64,000 nt of DNA, taken from contig JAYRIM010000021.1 of the NCBI GenBank assembly GCA_041906785.1, positions 17,881 to 81,880 on the forward strand, in the 5' to 3' direction. This DNA is from Candidatus Levyibacteriota bacterium. Its GTDB lineage: Bacteria > Patescibacteriota > Microgenomatia > Levybacterales > UBA12049. This document shows positions 7,729 to 58,015 of the stretch, piece by piece (within the stretch, counting starts at the first letter, position 1; the number at the start of each line of letters is the position of its first letter). The translations under genes were made by a program, and so were the position numbers. Below the pieces are notes generated by a model. The model ran no database searches, was not told where the DNA came from, and saw only the letters and a list, made by a program, of their open reading frames with translations.

Positions 7729-7786
7729 GATTAGTAAATCATTGGGGTAGGAGATGTGTTAACTGATATTCATTCACTTAACTTTG

Positions 7787-7858
7787 TGAGCCGGACAGGA
7801 TTCGAACCTGTGACCAAGAGCTTAAAAGGCTCCTGCTCTACCGCTGAGCTACCGGCCC
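7787..7858 (-). tRNA. tRNA-Lys (anticodon UUU)
   Basis: Reverse complement GGGCCGGTAGCTCAGCGGTAGAGCAGGAGCCTTTTAAGCTCTTGGTCACAGGTTCGAATCCTGTCCGGCTCA folds as canonical cloverleaf; loop CTTTTAA. Confidence 0.85.
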
Positions 7859-7922: not shown

Positions 7923-8694
7923 TTGTACACATCCGGTGTGTACTAGATAGACACCTCAGGAAATGATATTGTAGAGTTATGCCCTATCGTCAAATGCCTT
8001 TTGTTTCTGGAGAAATATATCATGTTTATAATAGGAGTATAGCTCGTCTACCAATTTTTAATAGAAAAAATGATTATATTCGTATACTCGACTTATTAAT
8101 GTACTATCGTTATTTAGAACTTCCTCTTAGATTTTCACATTTTAATAGATTATCTGAAGAAAGAAAAAGGCAGTACGAAGAGATTTATTTTACAAATAAA
8201 AAAAAATCGATTGATATACTTGCTTATGCTATTATGCCGAACCATCTTCATTTTCTTTTAAAGCCATATACTTTTAGTGCGATTTCAAATTTTATGCGAA
8301 ATATACAAAACGGATATGCTAAATATTACAATATAAAAAATGATAGAACAGGATCTCTTTTTCAATTCATGTTTAAGGCAAAAAGAATAGAAACAGAAGA
8401 ACAACTTATTCACGTTTCAAGATATATACATTTGAATCCCGTGACTGCATTCATTATAAATATTGATCAACTAGGTGACTATATGTGGAACTCATTTAAA
8501 GACTACCTTGAAGAATCTTCATCACTTGTGACTACTCAACAGATTCTAAATTTATTCTCTTCAAAGGAACAATATAAGAATTTTGTATATGATCAAGTTG
8601 ATTACCAACGAGAATTAGATAAGATAAAGCATTTGCTATATGAATAATCCTTATGTGTCTATGTTGTACAAACCCGATGTGGGTTTTAGTGGGT
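7923..8694 (+). mobile_element. IS200/RAYT-like unit: HUH-Y1 transposase gene flanked by inverted copies of a ~40-nt hairpin (REP-like) element
   Basis: 5' flank 7923-7957 TTGTACACATCCGGTGTGTACTAGATAGACACCTC is the reverse-complement orientation of 3' flank 8653-8694 ATGTGTCTATGTTGTACAAACCCGATGTGGGTTTTAGTGGGT. Confidence 0.55.
7979..8647 (+). CDS. IS200-like / REP-associated tyrosine transposase (HUH-Y1 family)
   Basis: Motifs EIYHVYNRSIARLPIF (YHVxxR), AYAIMPNHLHFLL (HUH), SRYIHLNPV (catalytic Tyr); 222 aa. Confidence 0.7.
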   Translation: MPYRQMPFVSGEIYHVYNRSIARLPIFNRKNDYIRILDLLMYYRYLELPLRFSHFNRLSEERKRQYEEIYFTNKKKSIDILAYAIMPNHLHFLLKPYTFSAISNFMRNIQNGYAKYYNIKNDRTGSLFQFMFKAKRIETEEQLIHVSRYIHLNPVTAFIINIDQLGDYMWNSFKDYLEESSSLVTTQQILNLFSSKEQYKNFVYDQVDYQRELDKIKHLLYE

Positions 8695-8702
8695 ATTATG
8701 AT

Positions 8703-15228: not shown

Positions 15229-18135
15229 ATGGAAAAAATTATAATTCGTGGAGCTAGAGAACATAATCTTAAAAACGTTAATTTGGAAATTCCGAAAAAT
15301 AAACTAGTGGTTTTTACTGGTTTATCAGGAAGTGGAAAATCATCTCTCGCCTTTGACACGATTTATGCCGAAGGACAACGCCGGTATGTAGAGAGTTTAT
15401 CTTCATATGCTCGTCAGTTTTTAGGAACGATGAAAAAACCCGATGTGGACCTTATCGAAGGGTTATCTCCGGCAATTTCTATTGACCAGAAATCTACTTC
15501 ACATAATCCACGTTCGACAGTCGGGACAGTTACTGAAATTTATGATTATCTTCGTTTATTATTCGCCCGAGTAGGGCATCCTCATTGTCCAAAATGTGGA
15601 AGAGAAATAGCCCGACAGTCTAAAGAGCAGATTACAAATGCTATTGCGGATCTAACACAGCAGTATCCGCAACTTGGTAAAAAACCGCTACGCACATTAA
15701 TCATGGCACCACTTGTGAAAGATAGAAAAGGTGAATATACAGAGATGTTTACTAGTCTGCGGAAACGGGGATATTCAAAAGTCCGTATTGATGGGAGAGT
15801 ATATGGACTTGATGAAAAAATTGTACTGATTAAGACAAATAAACATAGTATTGATCTTATTATTGATAGCATTGTTATCAATAAAGAAACAGATCGGACT
15901 CGTTTAGCAACTGACGTAGAACAGGCACTGCAATTCGGTAATGGAGAAATGATCGTCGGCGTTATCCATGATGCTTCATTCGACATTCCTGATAAGCCTG
16001 AACAGATCGAAGACCATTTATATTCTGAAAAATTTGCATGTCCAGTAGATAATATTTCTATTTCCGAAGTTGAGCCACGTATTTTTTCTTTTAATACACC
16101 CCATGGAGCATGTCCTGAATGTTCTGGTCTTGGCCGTGTTTTAGATGTAGATAAGGATTTAGTTTTTAATAAAGATTTATCTATTAATGAAGGAGGAATC
16201 TTGCCTTTCTTCAATATGATGATGAATGATACATGGATGTCACGGACGTTTAAGACATTTTGTAAAGAAAATGGACTTCCTATGGATAAACGACTTGGAG
16301 CATTATCAGAAGAACAAATCAATTTATTGTTGTACGGAACAGGAGACCGACAATATTATGTAAAAGGAGAAAATAGATGGGGAATGTCTACAGCGATTCG
16401 TGAATCATTTAAAGGAATTTCTTATGAATTAAAACGCCGCTATTCAGAATCAGATTCAGAATATGTTAAAGCGCAGATCGAAAAGTTCATGCGATATGAA
16501 GTTTGCCATGTTTGTGAAGGTGCACGGTTAAAACCAGAAGCTCTTTCAGTTACGATAGAAAAAGAGTCTATTGTCGCAGTTTCAGAGATGTCTATCCGGG
16601 ATGCCTTAGCATTTATCGAATCACTACCGAGTAAAATGTCTGATAGAGAAAATGAAATAGGCCGCTTAATTCTCCGTGAAATTCGACAACGTCTCTCTTT
16701 CTTGGTAGATGTAGGACTCGATTATTTAACACTTGCAAGAAGTGCAGCAACTTTAGCAGGCGGAGAAGCACAACGTATTCGCTTGGCATCACAAATAGGG
16801 AGTGGTTTAACCGGTGTGCTGTATGTTCTCGATGAACCATCTATTGGTTTACACCAGCGTGATAATACGAAATTAATAGAAACGCTTAAAAAACTCCGTG
16901 GGTTAGGAAATACTGTACTTGTGGTCGAGCATGATGAAGATACTATGAAAGCAGCGGATTATATTTATGATTTCGGTCCTGGAGCTGGGGTACATGGAGG
17001 AAATATAGTCGCCAAGGGAACATATGAAGAACTTGGGAAAAATCCCGCATCTATCACTGGCGAGTATCTTTCTGGAAAGAAAAAAATACAGATCAGGAAA
17101 ACAGAAAAAGGTGTCGGAGTGGACATGGATGGAAAGGAAAGCTCAATTACTATTCTCGGAGCAACTGAACATAATTTAAAAAATATTGACGTAACTTTTC
17201 CGCTTCACAAACTAGTAGTTGTGACAGGCGTTTCTGGATCGGGTAAGTCAACATTAGTGAATGACATTTTTTATCATGCACTGATGCAAGCGAAAAATCC
17301 ATATCATCGTCAGAAACCAGGAGCACATAAAGCTATTGCAGGCCATGAGGAAATTAAGAATATTTTTCTTATAGACCAATCGCCGATTGGGAGAACTCCC
17401 CGAAGTAATCCTATTACGTATACTGGAGCATTTAACTATATTAGAGATTTGTTTGCGAGTACCAAGGAAGCGAAATTGCGTGGATATGGTCCCGGACGAT
17501 TTTCATTTAACGTTAAAGGTGGTCGATGTGAAGCATGTGAAGGTGAAGGGCAAATAAAAATCGAAATGCAGTTTCTACCGGATGTCTATGTTACATGTGA
17601 AGTTTGTGGCGGAAAACAATATAATAATGAAGCATTAGAAATATTGTTTAATAGTAAGAATATCGCAGATGTTCTTCAGATGACTGTAGCAGAAGCAACA
17701 GCGTTTTTTTCATTCGTTCCTGGTCTAGCTCATAAACTTCAAACACTGAATGATGTAGGTTTATCATATATTCGTCTCGGTCAACCCGCACCGACATTAT
17801 CTGGAGGAGAAGCCCAACGCGTGAAACTAGCTTCAGAGCTTTCAAAGAAAGGCAAAGGAGCTATTTATCTTCTCGATGAACCAACTACAGGTTTGCATTT
17901 CGCTGATTTAGAAAAATTACTACTGGTTTTCAGAAAGTTAGTTGATTTAGGAAATACAATTATCGTGATAGAACATAACTTGGATGTGATCAAAAATGCT
18001 GACTATATTATTGATTTAGGTCCAGAAGGTGGAGATAAAGGTGGAGAAATTGTCGCTCTAGGTACACCTGAAGAAGTCGCTAAGATTGACAGATCATACA
18101 CAGGACAATTCCTCAAGAAAGTCCTCAAATCCTGA
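15229..18135 (+). CDS. uvrA: excinuclease ABC subunit A
   Basis: 968 aa; N-terminal [13 protein letters not shown]...[23 protein letters not shown]; two ABC modules with Walker [11 protein letters not shown], signature LSGGEAQR twice; zinc-finger CxxC pairs. Confidence 0.95.
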
Positions 18136-18182
18136 TGTGTCTACGATGTACACACCCGATGTGGGTTTTAATGTGGGTTTTA
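18136..18182 (+). repeat. REP-like hairpin element (same family as RAYT flanks) immediately after uvrA stop
   Basis: ATGTGTCTACGATGTACACACCCGATGTGGGTTTTAATGTGGGTTTT, about 80% identical to 8653-8694. Confidence 0.65.
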
Positions 18183-18334
18183 TTTTTTTTACTTATTTCT
18201 ATTATAGGGAGAGGTGGTTGGGTTACCCCAATCTCACAAATGCTCAATAAAGCGCAAAATTGCTTCAAAAAGTTTTTATGGATTATATCCACCTCCCCCC
18301 GATGTTAAATAGGGGGGAACGCAACGCAATAAGT

Positions 18335-47230: not shown

Positions 47231-47316
47231 AGGGGTTAATGGGACAGAAGAGCCATAGGTACCAAAAAAAAACAACTTTTGTCTCTTCTGGCTCTTTGGT
47301 CCCTTTTGAAACCTTT
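47231..47316. repeat. composite palindromic intergenic repeat, copy 5
   Basis: GGGACAGAAGAGCCATAGGTACCAAAAAAAAACAACTTTTGTCTCTTCTGGCTCTTTGGTCCC. Confidence 0.7.
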
Positions 47317-47320
47317 CAAT

Positions 47321-47776
47321 ATGGAGTTCTGGCAGCAACTTATCATAATCATTTATGGATCATTAGCATTTATAGCTTTTATAACAAGCATATACGCCTG
47401 TGCTTTTAAAAAGAAAGCGTATCAAGATACACCTCTCTGGGGTTTACTTTTTACAGGATTTGTCCAAGCTGATAATGTATATATTGGTTTCTTTTGGGTA
47501 TGTGTTTCGCTCGTAACACTTGTTCTTAATGATTGGCTACTATTCCTGCTTATCCTTTCTTATTTCTGGCTGGTACGCAGTGTAGGGGAGACGTTATATT
47601 GGTTTTTACAGCAATTTCACCCCAGAGGAGGCAATCCTCCGGAAAAATTCTGGATACATAAAGTCGTTAAAAATGATTCTGTGTGGTTTATGAACCAAAT
47701 TTACTGGCAACTCATGACAGTTATTACAATTATTGCTTCTCTATATATTACACATATTTGGTTAAAAACTATTTAA
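47321..47776 (+). CDS. small 4-TM membrane protein, hypothetical (start trimmed out of repeat)
   Basis: Track ORF start 47279 lies inside repeat copy 5; first Met after repeat at 47321 (MEFWQQL...). Confidence 0.35.
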   Translation: MEFWQQLIIIIYGSLAFIAFITSIYACAFKKKAYQDTPLWGLLFTGFVQADNVYIGFFWVCVSLVTLVLNDWLLFLLILSYFWLVRSVGETLYWFLQQFHPRGGNPPEKFWIHKVVKNDSVWFMNQIYWQLMTVITIIASLYITHIWLKTI

Positions 47777-47780
47777 TCTT

Positions 47781-47807
47781 ATGTGTCTAGCTGGTACAAA
47801 CCTGACA
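47781..47807 (+). repeat. REP-like element, truncated copy
   Basis: ATGTGTCTAGCTGGTACAAACCTGACA matches 5' half of 8653 and 18136 elements. Confidence 0.55.
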
Positions 47808-47819
47808 ATTTGAAAACTT

Positions 47820-49148
47820 TTATCCCTCTTGTGCTAGCTTCACTCGTTCGTATCTATCAGCCATAAATCCATTCGGAACAGTTGTTAATTTATCTGCATA
47901 CATTAAAAATCCATTTCGTATCGTATGATCCCCGTATTTTTCATTTAAAACATCTATAACGCGTACGACATTCTCATATTTCATATTGTCGTAAAACATG
48001 TGTTGGCTCGTTTGTTCTTTATTAGCTAGATAGCTCACCCAGACACTAATTTGCCTGACATATCCTAAATCTGAAAAAAAATGTTGCCAAACAAATTCCA
48101 CAGATGCTGTATCTTCCTTTCCATAAGGCCACCCATCTTGATTTGCCATAGTAAGAGAGACATAAGTCGTTTGTTGGACTAAAAACAATAACATAGTAAA
48201 TAAATCTTTTCCGTTATCCATATAATGAGAGAATGTTCGTTGTCTTGCAATACTGTTTCGACCACGAAGTGCGAAGCCTACATGGCGCGCTCGCTTTCCC
48301 AGCCGCCGCAATTTAATTCCGAGTTCTTCACAAAGTTCATAGACGTTTTGTAAAACAATTCGTGAATTATATTCATTTTTTGGTAAACAATAATTTCTAC
48401 TTATAGATTTGGCTTCCTGGGTAATCGTAAAGGAGATAACATCACGCATATCTATCCCTTTTCCTACATGAAAAAGAAATGTTCCTTCTACCTGACCAAA
48501 CTCTGCCAATAATGAAGTAAGTGGTGTTTGAGAAAGCTGCGTCAGTGTATAAATCCCCATTTGGTTAAGGCGCTTTTCTATACGCGGACCGATACCGCAT
48601 ATATCTTGGAGTTTAGCCATACTGTAGATATATGGAACTTGTGAAGGTTTTATAGATACAACACCATCAGGTTTTTTTAAGCCAGAACCAAGTTTAGCTA
48701 ACAATTTATTATAGGAAATACCCACTGAAACAGTAATATGTTCACCAATTTCTTTCCGAATGCGATCTTTTAAATGCTTAACGAGGGGAAAAACACCACC
48801 AAATAAATGAGCAGTCATTGTAACATCAAGAAAAAGTTCATCGATAGAGAATACTTCGATAAAAGGTGAGTAATCTTTACATATTGCTATAAACTTTTTA
48901 CTAATTTCCCAATATTTTGGAAAATCTGCAGAGACGAACTGCATTGTAGGACATAACTTAAGCGCATCGAAGCGGCTCATCCCTCCTGTGACACCCAATT
49001 TCTTCGCCTCTTTTGATGCTGCGATAACCGCATTCCTGCCGTTTTGAGCAGTAACACCAAGAGGTTTACCCTGCATCTCTGGGCGATACTGCTGTTCTAC
49101 GCTCGCAAAAAATGAGTCAAAATCAATATGTAAAATTATCTTATTCAT
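47820..49148 (-). CDS. dinB: Y-family DNA polymerase IV
   Basis: ILHIDFDSFFASVEQ catalytic motif, palm/fingers/little-finger layout, 442 aa. Confidence 0.8.
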   Translation of the reverse strand: MNKIILHIDFDSFFASVEQQYRPEMQGKPLGVTAQNGRNAVIAASKEAKKLGVTGGMSRFDALKLCPTMQFVSADFPKYWEISKKFIAICKDYSPFIEVFSIDELFLDVTMTAHLFGGVFPLVKHLKDRIRKEIGEHITVSVGISYNKLLAKLGSGLKKPDGVVSIKPSQVPYIYSMAKLQDICGIGPRIEKRLNQMGIYTLTQLSQTPLTSLLAEFGQVEGTFLFHVGKGIDMRDVISFTITQEAKSISRNYCLPKNEYNSRIVLQNVYELCEELGIKLRRLGKRARHVGFALRGRNSIARQRTFSHYMDNGKDLFTMLLFLVQQTTYVSLTMANQDGWPYGKEDTASVEFVWQHFFSDLGYVRQISVWVSYLANKEQTSQHMFYDNMKYENVVRVIDVLNEKYGDHTIRNGFLMYADKLTTVPNGFMADRYERVKLAQEG

Positions 49149-57472: not shown

Positions 57473-57943
57473 ATGAACGTCTGCCTGAAATGTAACAAGA
57501 TATATAAAGCATCAAGTAGGCATAAAGTTTGCCCTAAATGTCGGAAGCAATTAGATAAAACACCATGTGATAATTGTGGAAACTTAAAACAAAGAAAATC
57601 TAAAAATTGTAAAAATTGTTATATTCAAAGCAAACAATATCCCTATTCAAATAAAAAACATTTAAGTAAAGATGGATATTATTATGTATACTATCGAGCT
57701 CATCCGTTTGCAGATAAATCTGGTCGAGTTTACGAGCATAGGTTAGTAATGGAAAAAAAATTAGGAAGGTATCTTCTACCACATGAAAATGTTCACCATA
57801 AAAATGGTAGAAAAGATGACAATAGAATTGAAAATCTAGAATTGTGGATAAGAATCCAACCTACTGGCGCTCGGGTAGAGGATGTAGTAAAATGGGCAAA
57901 GGAAATTATAGAACTATATGGTGGTGTTAGCTCAGTTGGTTAG
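57473..57943 (+). CDS. HNH endonuclease with N-terminal CxxC zinc-ribbon motifs
   Basis: CLKC..CPKC..CDNC..CKNC then YEHRLVMEKKLGRYLLPHENVHHKNGRKDDNRIENLELW HNH core; 3' end overlaps tRNA-His by 24 nt. Confidence 0.7.
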   Translation: MNVCLKCNKIYKASSRHKVCPKCRKQLDKTPCDNCGNLKQRKSKNCKNCYIQSKQYPYSNKKHLSKDGYYYVYYRAHPFADKSGRVYEHRLVMEKKLGRYLLPHENVHHKNGRKDDNRIENLELWIRIQPTGARVEDVVKWAKEIIELYGGVSSVG

Positions 57944-57994
57944 AGCGCTAGGTTGTGGACCTGGAGGTCGCCGGTTCAAATCCGGTACACCACC
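57920..57994 (+). tRNA. tRNA-His (anticodon GUG) with genomically encoded G-1
   Basis: G-1 + GTGGTGT acceptor pairs ACACCAC + discriminator C; D arm GCTCAGTTGGTTAGAGC; anticodon loop TTGTGGA; T arm GCCGGTTCAAATCCGGT. Confidence 0.8.
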
Positions 57995-58015
57995 CACCTT
58001 TTCTCCTCGAAATAT

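Follow-up and report, generated by a model that had tools for sequence, protein, structure and literature searches.

To our knowledge, work on RAYT/REP systems has dealt almost solely with Proteobacteria and a handful of other phyla in culture. For the largest RAYT-like subclass (2.1, or Group 1) we know of no DNA partner. The term REPtron stands for E. coli TnpA-REP, a RAYT, together with REP/BIME elements (PDB 4ER8; PMC3479197; Nunvar 2010 and Ton-Hoang 2012, both via PMC6006769). REPs are normally species-specific (PMC6006769, Methods).

The TIRYT/TIRtron (Di Nocera 2013, PMC3733652) is the same as TnpAY1 subclass 2.1 (Quentin 2018, PMC6006769) and as the Group 1 RAYT of Bertels (PMC5581495). 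Published TIRs have the motif GGGGWSAS in common (PMC3733652). The signature of subclass 2.1 consists of NH[VYF]H, FQ/W[EQ] and Y[IV]HLNP in a protein of approximately 238 amino acids with a Ser motif in the tail; in 2018 Quentin found no REP-like sequences for this subclass (PMC6006769).

The kind of system described here is already known; new are the lineage, which is undescribed, and a repeat that is common to many candidate phyla. The window, i.e. the whole 64-kb stretch of DNA that was analysed, comes from a CPR bacterium with a tiny genome and harbors a locus that is probably of the REPtron/TIRtron type: a single-copy, vertically inherited gene for a RAYT-like HUH-Y1 nuclease with a cognate dispersed element of ~40 nt, of which two inverted copies bracket the gene and others are scattered through the genome, chiefly at gene 3' ends.

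Element copies in the window and in other genomes

An nhmmer profile made from the copies of other genomes, with the window left out, found exactly four copies in the window (E 2e-11 to 1e-5; next match E > 1). The copy upstream of the RAYT-like gene (7924..7964; E 2e-11) is inverted relative to the gene and reads TTTCCTGAGGTGTCTATCTAGTACACACCGGATGTGTAC on the - strand, and the copy downstream (8645..8686, + strand; E 1e-8 for the match 8645-8684) is in direct orientation. They share an inverted repeat of 34 nt (7928-7961 / 8648-8681; 82% complementary), which together with the independent profile shows the gene flanks to be inverted copies of one another. A dispersed copy lies at the 3' end of uvrA (18127..18168, + strand; E 1e-9 for the match 18127-18166), and a degenerate one (47778..47804, + strand; E 1e-5), which keeps an intact 5' half but not the hairpin half, lies after the stop of the ORF 47279-47776, with the convergent dinB/IMS gene (47820-49148, - strand) ending on its other side. 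The original prediction had inverted copies in the gene flanks and two further copies, at uvrA and after the gene ending at 47776, oriented like the 3' flank; all four were found, with the orientations right and the coordinates correct to within a few bases. Exact and 3-mismatch searches with the flank sequence gave 0 matches in 100 shuffles.

The hairpin that had been noticed in each gene flank is real, yet weak as single-stranded DNA according to fold energies. The 5' copy has a 7-bp stem (GTACACA/TGTGTAC, −5.9 kcal/mol, z −1.5), the 3' copy a 6-bp stem (AAACCC/GGGTTT, −4.8 kcal/mol, z −1.8) and the uvrA copy a stem of 3-5 bp; the copy at 47778, its 3' half being degenerate, gave no hairpin on folding. 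In all three full copies GATGTG replaces GGTGTG. The TAA stop of the RAYT-like gene (8645-8647) coincides with the conserved A-A-W-T left edge of the downstream copy, and the TGA stop of uvrA (18133-18135) falls inside the element (TCC-TGA-TGTGTC). Downstream of the RAYT-like gene the 3' tail of the element is imperfectly duplicated in tandem (8679..8698, + strand; GTGGGTTTTA / GTGGGTATTA), which is a family-wide pattern. At uvrA the duplication comprises the 3' arm and the tail and is exact (ATGTGGGTTTTA at 18159-18170 and again at 18171-18182), followed by a T-run (18159..18190, + strand). With ACCC..GGGT and a T-rich tail the uvrA site is terminator-like, the sole copy to score so.

Apart from the pair that brackets the gene, no REPIN doublets, which had been considered as a possible arrangement of the copies, occur in the window. 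There is no intragenic copy in the window and no further copy in the 11.5 kb past the window ends (extended through edge proteins). Scanned with Rfam at gathering thresholds, the window gave six tRNAs only and no RNA family at the elements. The ~75 kb of source sequence hold two copies beyond the gene flanks, where 0 are expected; the total of four is a modest number. A metagenome scan for the window variant GTGTCTA-N4-GTACA-N-ACC-N-GATGTG found nothing. As far as these ~75 kb show, the element family in the source genome is small and diverged. Recent mobility there is doubtful because the window copies are only ~90% alike, the hairpins are weak and one copy is half-degenerate.

The same pairing of gene and element is met again in other members of the Microgenomates group and in CPR2. 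The element has the consensus TCCYKAKGTGTCWAsCTAnCACACC-N-GGTGTG, or, with its edges, AAWTCCYKAKGTGTCWAsCTAnCACACC-N-GGTGTGkg. Its 5' part, TCCYKAKGTGTCWAsCTA, is conserved and single-stranded, and after it comes the palindrome CACACC-N-GGTGTG, whose invariance points to recognition of the sequence and not just of the structure; covariation of the stem pairs 19-33 and 17-35 exceeds that in every shuffle. The consensus contains neither the GGGGWSAS motif nor a 5' GT[AG]G at the hairpin foot (it reads ...GTGTCWAsCTAn before the stem). Ahead of the stem, T-type arms have CTAC; this is the complement of GTAG, on the wrong strand and in the wrong position. Scanning with the element pattern matched at least 118 stretches, nearly all from CPR MAGs, against ~4 expected by chance in 596 Gb by our own calculation, and the free positions of the pattern are strongly conserved among the matched copies. 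A close RAYT homologue lies beside the match in 22 of the 118 loci (among the matches listed), and inverted flanks at fixed spacing surround the gene in 18 further RAYT loci with both flanks visible.

Most copies are intergenic, next to stop codons: among the matches listed, the first gene call puts 164 of 184 outside ORFs, and a stricter anchor test puts 155 of 184 there. Three related MAGs have at least 13, at least 10 and at least 8 sites. The variants are genome-specific, with a copy identity of 0.79 within and 0.70 between genomes (the observed value was reached in 0 of 1000 permutations). Copies are biased in strand (66:38), and neighbouring copies are on the same strand (7:0), both among the matches listed. 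Nine inverted doublets occur among the ~123 non-RAYT copies of the matches listed, all sharing one hairpin tip; one of them, in L030, folds with −15.6 kcal/mol (z −4.9). Two arm sub-types pair with mismatches in the doublets (GTGTCAAGCTA versus GTGTCTACCTA), which resembles the Y/Z REP types of E. coli.

In relatives, copies also lie inside genes, one of them for a ligase. They are in frame in conserved genes (such as RecG, DinB, alanine racemase and a PEP-utilising-like protein) and add ~13 amino acids in putative loops; of the 20 open frames that span a copy, 10 use one and the same reading frame, P-D/E-V-S...T-P-G-V-G. Identity at third positions is 0.64-0.91 within the element and 0.45-0.51 in the flanks. 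We make no claim of constraint at the DNA level from this excess, because selection by the search pattern would itself yield much of it.

Do the elements by now serve only the host in cis (as 3'-end hairpins, terminators, part of a promoter or binding sites), with a conservation that reflects this function and not transposition, and is the protein a domesticated sequence-specific DNA binder or nuclease that has ceased to move them? Several observations favor this: the core sequence is common to candidate phyla, whereas REPs are normally confined to a species (PMC6006769); its palindrome is invariant; the uvrA copy with its T-run looks like a terminator; the upstream copy embeds a candidate −35 box (see below); ~35 of 87 co-oriented upstream genes end −4 to +6 nt from the element start (among the matches listed); and the same orthologue has a copy next to it in several genomes, e.g. 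SecA, at the 3' end, in four. Long retention or a host function would account for the last finding as readily as transposition. We nevertheless regard a purely host-serving role as unlikely, since the genome-specific variants and the multi-copy arrays on one strand indicate spread within lineages, orientation relative to the flanking genes is only weakly biased (++ 55, −− 38, +− 34, −+ 26, among the matches listed), the in-frame copies in unrelated genes resemble insertions, not regulatory sites, and the catalytic residues of the protein are invariant. Host cis-elements and spread by the RAYT are compatible with each other.

Some narrower ideas were dropped. A terminator acting at the RNA level as the main role was rejected in view of the weak orientation bias and of the uvrA copy alone being terminator-like. 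The neighbouring uvrA and dinB and the copies in RecG, DinB and ligase of relatives suggested a link to DNA repair, which was abandoned because the recurrent neighbours of the 122 dispersed copies (among the matches listed) are ordinary housekeeping genes. attC sites, uptake sequences and CRP-type sites were rejected on sequence and spacing.

The RAYT-like gene and its product

The gene (7979..8647, + strand) encodes a RAYT-like Y1 HUH tyrosine transposase/nuclease of 222 amino acids, as judged from motifs, profiles and predicted fold. The three motifs that the original prediction had named in this ORF (YHVxxR, HUH and RYIHLNP) were all found and are kept in 41 homologues, where Y14-H15-V (YHVYNR), N88-H89-L-H91 (HuH) and R148-Y149-IHLNP are invariant or nearly so. 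By motif comparison Tyr149, within RYIHLNP, is the putative catalytic tyrosine. The window protein has NHLH, and the 41 homologues carry V, F, Y or I at the variable position. F128-Q129 and W170-x-S172 are further residues of the window protein; its C-terminal ~65 amino acids are helical (five short helices in the predicted model, residues 162-220) with a conserved W-S-S motif. A C-terminal HTH (Bac_DnaA_C, HTH_23, HTH_28) gave no Pfam match with E ≤ 1 in the 41 homologues. The protein fits the signature of TnpAY1 subclass 2.1 (Bertels Group 1) in a comparison of its motifs with Table 1 of PMC6006769, made in place of a search with the HMMs of those authors.

In the profile searches that the original prediction had proposed, the protein passed Pfam Y1_Tnp (38 bits, cut-off 23) and fell below the cut-off of the NCBIfam equivalog REP_Tyr_transpos (NF047646; 55.3 bits, cut-off 80). 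With transpos_IS200 (NF033573) it reached 15 bits, far below the cut-off of 55. REP_Tyr_transpos scored better than transpos_IS200 in 41 of 41 homologues, all of them below the REP_Tyr_transpos cut-off level. The AlphaFold model of the window protein is predicted with high confidence (pLDDT 91.6), and its first Foldseek match is 4ER8, the E. coli RAYT-REP complex (E 5.8e-8, TM(target) 0.69), with the TnpA of IS608 and ISDra2 next (E ~1e-4). Since a sequence search of the PDB with the window protein gave no match below E 0.6, the relation to 4ER8 is visible at the level of the fold only. Going by the predicted model and the motifs, the protein has a Y1 HUH fold and is nearer to RAYT than to IS200 transposases.

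A promoter-like site precedes the gene (7948..7977, + strand), consisting of TAGACA, an 18-nt spacer and TAGAGT; the first hexamer, a candidate −35 box, lies inside the upstream element copy. Taken alone, the window site matches at 9 of 12 positions, which is not above shuffle expectation, and it is weaker and 4 nt shorter than the form found in relatives. Its geometry is shared across RAYT loci: TTGACA-17-TAnnnT-6-ATG is found at the same position in 17 of 19 loci (18 relatives and the window), which implies a leaderless-type mRNA. Relatives also have the −35 box within the upstream copy, besides in-frame copies inside genes and tandem duplications of the 3' tail.

The gene is low-copy, vertically inherited and housekeeping-like. 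These properties bear on the proposal that the ~770-bp unit 7924-8686 is an autonomous IS of the IS200/IS605 type with subterminal hairpins, the short copies being MITE- or PATE-like derivatives. The protein does belong to the Y1_Tnp family, the hairpin-bearing ends are inverted, the gene is found in differing contexts across distant clades and one relative (L104) has two paralogues. We consider such an IS very unlikely all the same: the Y motif is YIHLNP rather than the Y..(E)NQ of IS200 (Table 1, PMC6006769), the transpos_IS200 score is far too low, there is one gene copy in ~75 kb (window plus extensions) and no tnpB next to it, neither flanking gene having a Pfam family on record. Moreover, synteny of the gene holds in three subclades, it has changed less than the genes around it (L002 and L004 are 85% identical in this gene and 31-75% in the neighbours), the L104 paralogues are merely 34-52% identical, and no close relatives were found on plasmids or phages.

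Interpretation of the locus

A resemblance of the four window sequences by chance or low complexity among AT-rich intergenic hairpins and terminators, for which only the weak hairpins (z −1.5 to −1.8) and the hairpin-less copy speak, is already refuted by the shuffles, by the E values of the independent profile and by the same sequence flanking the orthologous gene in 18 other genomes.

The interpretation as a RAYT with its cognate REP family, with which the original prediction ended, is supported by the protein profiles, the fold, the recurring architecture and the proliferation of the element. The locus is best described as REPtron/TIRtron-like, not as an active IS. We call it a non-canonical RAYT/REP because of the missing 5' GTAG, the NCBIfam score below cut-off, the motifs of a subclass reported to be REP-less, the low copy number and the lack of REPIN doublets in the window. 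The practical message of the window is modest: it has a single RAYT-like gene, which is intact, and four copies of the element, and nothing in it points to a recent burst.

By analogy with E. coli TnpA-REP (PMC3479197; also cited in PMC6006769), the RAYT-like protein would mobilise the elements. While the DNA is single-stranded, e.g. at the replication fork, it may bind one strand at the hairpin and the 5' part, and cutting and rejoining through Tyr149 and a HuH-bound metal would then copy or move the element. The gene's promoter may draw its −35 box from the upstream copy, in which case the protein would autoregulate expression by binding there. For the host, copies that abut stop codons could act as 3'-end hairpins or terminators.

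Tentatively, and as a possibility that we hold to be well short of probable, this would be an ancient partnership of RAYT and element, co-inherited through the whole Microgenomates/CPR2 radiation with a recognition sequence of ~33 nt almost unchanged, and integrated into the host biology of genomes of <1 Mb. The element would then give the nuclease gene its promoter, supply stop codons and 3'-end hairpins of housekeeping genes, and provide in-frame loop peptides (of the P-D/E-V-S...T-P-G-V-G type) in RecG, DinB, alanine racemase and the PEP-utilising-like protein; the system would belong to a TnpAY1 subclass formerly thought to be REP-less. If such a partnership existed, the enzyme's cutting and rejoining would have left its footprint in the recurring tandem duplications of the 3' arm.

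A protein that fits the subclass 2.1 signature here has a clear hairpin-bearing partner sequence, conserved over many candidate phyla of the ultra-small, gene-dense CPR genomes. This sequence is a defined candidate substrate for the biochemistry of subclass 2.1, a natural system for asking why streamlined genomes retain a repeat family, and a marker for the annotation of CPR MAGs, in which the gene is currently labelled just "transposase" or "hypothetical".

Comparison with described systems

With the REPIN system of Pseudomonas (Bertels & Rainey 2011, PMC3116915) the locus shares non-autonomous repeats tied to a single-copy RAYT, and with the long-term vertical persistence of REPINs (bioRxiv 10.1101/2021.07.10.451892) it shares vertical inheritance and lineage-specific variants. 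It differs from REPINs in that doublets are few (the 9 of ~123 among the matches listed) and have one shared tip rather than two REPs and a spacer, in far lower copy numbers and in the RAYT group. The in-frame copies of ~13 amino acids in conserved genes of relatives are like the Rickettsia palindromic elements and intragenic REPs (PMC3733652); unlike the Rickettsia palindromic elements, the family described here has a cognate transposase gene.

IS200/IS605 elements (IS608, ISDra2) have in common with the locus the Y1 HUH fold (Foldseek ranks 2-14 of the predicted model) and subterminal hairpins with a conserved 5' part. Strand-specific chemistry on single-stranded DNA would be expected of both, and the strand bias of the copies fits it. 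The differences are the Y motif, the absence of tnpB, the single-copy, syntenic and slowly evolving gene, and a score far under the NF033573 cut-off.

E. coli TnpA-REP (4ER8) is the best structural match of the predicted model. Both systems have a single-copy Y1 HUH gene flanked by inverted dispersed extragenic palindromes, a Y motif of the Y...NP type and elements that are chiefly intergenic at gene 3' ends. In contrast to E. coli REPs, the elements described here have no 5' GTAG and carry a conserved single-stranded part of 17 nt before the stem, their core is conserved across candidate phyla rather than species-specific, and the copies are mostly singletons. The window protein is 57 residues longer than the 4ER8 chain (222 versus 165 amino acids), with 16% identity in the structural alignment.

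With TIRYT/subclass 2.1 the protein shares NH[x]H, FQ in place of WQ, Y[IV]HLNP, a length of ~222-238 amino acids and a Ser motif in the tail (WSS), and the locus shares a low-copy gene with inverted-repeat flanks that form moderately abundant families. It differs from TIRYT in an element without GGGGWSAS and a protein without a detectable C-terminal HTH, and from subclass 2.1 as reported, i.e. REP-less, in that the flanks are hairpin-bearing and dispersed.

The RAYT-like gene and the four element copies of the window

The ORF 7979..8647(+) encodes a RAYT-like protein of 222 amino acids that passes the Pfam profile Y1_Tnp (38 bits, cut-off 23) and scores 15 bits only with the profile transpos_IS200. 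Its match to NCBIfam REP_Tyr_transpos (55 bits) stayed under the equivalog cut-off of 80. The diagnostic motifs read from the protein proved right; the catalytic residues are invariant in 41 homologues. In all, 2,186 homologues were detected (222-224 amino acids); the best 120 of them, the source's own copy aside, are 51-62% identical to the protein, and the few of the 120 that carry names come from Levybacteria and Curtissbacteria (CPR/Microgenomates). The relatives in plasmid and phage collections reach 26-39% identity only. An NCBI contig of 136,988 bp has a form shorter by 5 amino acids, and the protein is also found on a Logan contig. The closest PDB fold match to the confident AlphaFold model (pLDDT 91.6) is 4ER8, the E. 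coli RAYT with REP hairpin (E 5.8e-8); the TnpA proteins of ISDra2 and IS608 rank behind it.

The gene is bracketed by inverted copies, as had been predicted, of a hairpin repeat of about 40 nt, here called the element (7928-7961/8648-8681; 34 nt, 82% complementary). Either flank as query retrieved the copy after uvrA, with 0 matches in 100 shuffles. A profile built solely from element copies of other genomes found four copies in the 64 kb, with no other match at E 1 or below: one upstream of the gene (7964-7924, minus strand, E 2e-11), one at the 3′ end of uvrA (gene 15229-18135, plus strand; copy 18127-18166, plus strand, E 1e-9), one downstream of the RAYT-like gene (8645-8684, plus strand, E 1e-8) and a degenerate one (47778-47804, plus strand, E 1e-5) at the 3′ end of dinB/IMS (47820-49148, minus strand). 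Since these are the predicted four, the coordinates, orientations and motifs of the original prediction were right.

In all three plus-strand copies the stop codon of the upstream gene lies at the element's first bases: TAA of the RAYT-like gene (8645-8647, plus strand) at the start of the downstream copy, TGA of uvrA (18133-18135, plus strand) within TCC-TGA-TG of the element, and TAA of the gene before the 47778 copy (47774-47776, plus strand). The predicted hairpins in the flanking copies are present but weak; three of the four window copies have one (−4.8 to −5.9 kcal/mol, z about −1.5 to −1.8), and the 47778 copy is missing the hairpin half. All three full copies share a private variant, GATGTG in place of GGTGTG. 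The window's own four copies, rather worn, are ordinary. A tie of the element to the DNA-repair genes uvrA and dinB is probably coincidence, because in relatives 122 dispersed copies proved to have ordinary housekeeping genes beside them (Mur ligase, EF-G, SecA, PBP, Lon).

The element family in other genomes

When 185,579 species genomes were scanned with the pattern CCYKAKGTGTCWA-N10-ACC-N-G-N-TGTG, for which about 4 matches by chance were calculated, at least 118 stretches matched. Among the matches listed are Levy-, Davies-, Curtiss-, Gottesman-, Woyke-, Woese- and Shapirobacteria, CPR2, Patescibacteria and ENA MAGs labelled 'uncultured Gammaproteobacteria'. Many ENA MAGs named 'uncultured Gammaproteobacteria bacterium isolate binchicken_...' hold an element and gene of the Microgenomates type; the label is probably wrong. 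Positions left free by the pattern (C14, T15, A16, C20, A21, C22, G28) are strongly conserved, being kept in 115-144 of 145 copies. The copies form one family.

The consensus, AAWT-CCYKAKGTGTCWAsCTAnCACACC-N-GGTGTGkg (about 40 nt), has two parts: a 5′ part of about 17 nt that is conserved and not palindromic, and the palindrome CACACC-N-GGTGTG, which is invariant throughout the sample. Watson-Crick pairing at the stem base beats every one of 500 shuffles (pair 19-33: 88 observed vs 69±5 expected; pair 17-35: 55 vs 36±5). The arms are of two types, GTGTCAAGCTA and GTGTCTACCTA. Nine times a pair of inverted copies is joined at a common hairpin tip into one long palindrome, usually with one arm of each type (in the stretch L030, −15.6 kcal/mol, z −4.9). 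Most copies are singletons, so that a check for REPIN doublets found none in the window and few in the family. The 3′ arm with a tail of 3-10 nt (mostly 11-15 nt together) is duplicated exactly in tandem in 23 of 146 copies, as compared with 6/146 for the 5′ flank and 0.5/146 in shuffles; examples are 18159-18182 and 8679-8698 in the window and copies in L052, L074, L078, L092, L109 and others.

Although 86% of the sampled DNA codes, 164 of 184 copies lie outside called ORFs (155 of 184 in a stricter anchor test), and about 35 of 87 co-oriented upstream genes end −4 to +6 nt from the element start. Orientation relative to the adjoining genes is weakly biased; the G-rich strand is preferred 66:38 (p 0.008), which is confounded with gene orientation (65:39), and neighbouring copies are on the same strand 7:0. 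Two copies from one genome resemble each other more closely than two from different genomes (identity 0.79 vs 0.70; 0 of 1000 permutations as high), and JAHJSD has a private variant, TAATTCC..GTGTCAACCTA, at 13 sites at least.

In relatives, some twelve copies are situated in frame within long conserved genes, where CCN-GAN-GTG-TCN translates to P-D/E-V-S...T-P-G-V-G (L007 5123(+), L094 4250(−), L097 2386(−), L019 6243(+), L086 6454(−), L014 2473(−), L013 4909(+), L031 439(−), L081 4519(−) and L090 7048(−)). The hosts are a PEP-utilising-like protein (same site, four genomes), a RecG-like protein (two genomes), DinB, alanine racemase, an acyl-CoA synthetase-like protein and DNA ligase; relative to solved PDB homologues, the segment adds 7 amino acids to alanine racemase and 13 to DinB. 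Intragenic REPs are already known (PMC3733652).

Some orthologous genes have a copy next to them in each of 3-5 genomes, e.g., at the 3′ end of SecA (L060 4655-7486 represents the cluster), and some positions are therefore conserved over long times. The elements may also serve the host as terminators, 3′-end hairpins or binding sites, a function compatible with a RAYT and its repeat.

Conservation of the gene, its promoter geometry and a possible mechanism

The window and 11.5 kb of extensions contain one copy of the RAYT-like gene. Its synteny is kept within three subclades, the gene is 85% identical between L002 and L004, whose neighbouring genes are 31-75% identical, and the orthologues of three further species have the same element in their flanks. 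An IS200-type insertion sequence is disfavoured by the Y motif of the protein and by a gene that is single copy, syntenic, slowly evolving and not adjoined by tnpB. The locus has the architecture and population features that support its reading as a RAYT with cognate repeat.

At 17 of 19 RAYT loci (18 relatives and the window) the gene's strand has the sequence GCTTGACAC in the upstream copy. TTGACA is found there in L002, L004, L006, L012, L027, L039, L046, L049, L057, L058, L070, L083, L088, L100, L104, L105 and L107; the spacing TTGACA-17-TAnnnT-6-start codon is preserved, and the −35 box falls within the element. The conservation of this geometry, with ATG as start and no Shine-Dalgarno sequence upstream of these genes, suggests a leaderless-type mRNA. 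The window's promoter-like site (7948-7977, TAGACA-18-TAGAGT) is 4 nt shorter than those of the relatives and weaker, and its match alone does not exceed chance. In most RAYT loci compared the downstream copy begins at the stop codon or directly after it.

If it works like TnpA-REP of E. coli (PMC3479197; PMC6006769), the protein would recognise the element's 5′ part and hairpin in single-stranded DNA, would cut and rejoin through Tyr149, and may regulate its own gene at the upstream copy.

In several genomes a tRNA gene adjoins the RAYT-like gene: in the window tRNA-Lys(TTT) (7786-7858, minus strand) is divergent, 120 nt upstream, and in other genomes the gene is followed, after about 85-175 nt, by tRNA-Lys(CTT) or tRNA-Val(GAC) (L002 10753-10826; L004 10766-10839; L012 6022-6094; L070 4179-4251). 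Elsewhere in the window an ORF with an HNH_3 endonuclease domain (57473-57943) ends inside or beside tRNA-His (57921-57995). Some genomes have a second, divergent RAYT-like paralogue (34-41% identity) in blocks also with element copies (L104 177-791 and 6256-6927; L013 1908-2492; L014 7185-7778; L055 443-1069).

Comparison with known systems

From canonical RAYT/REP systems the present one differs in that the element has no GT[AG]G foot, the protein scores under the NCBIfam cut-off and the copies are mostly singletons. In length and in the motifs NH-x-H, FQ, YIHLNP and WSS the protein resembles TnpAY1 subclass 2.1 (Quentin et al., 2018), which is Group 1 of Bertels et al. and the TIRYT of Di Nocera (2013). 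It differs from subclass 2.1 in that a Pfam search of 41 homologues found no C-terminal HTH, and from TIRYTs in that the published TIR motif GGGGWSAS was not found in the element consensus. Quentin et al. describe subclass 2.1 as without REP-like sequences (PMC6006769), and according to Bertels et al. the flanking 16-mers of Group 1 occur only about 12 times (PMC5581495). REPs have been described as species-specific (PMC6006769, Methods), whereas several NCBI candidate phyla share the core of this element. Full-text searches found no description of REPs or RAYTs in CPR genomes; a single paper names both the candidate phyla radiation and repetitive extragenic palindromic sequences, each once. 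The original prediction is borne out as an observation, and its reading as a RAYT with cognate repeat is supported; what is unusual is the family, through its lineage, its depth of conservation and its subclass, rather than the copies of the window.
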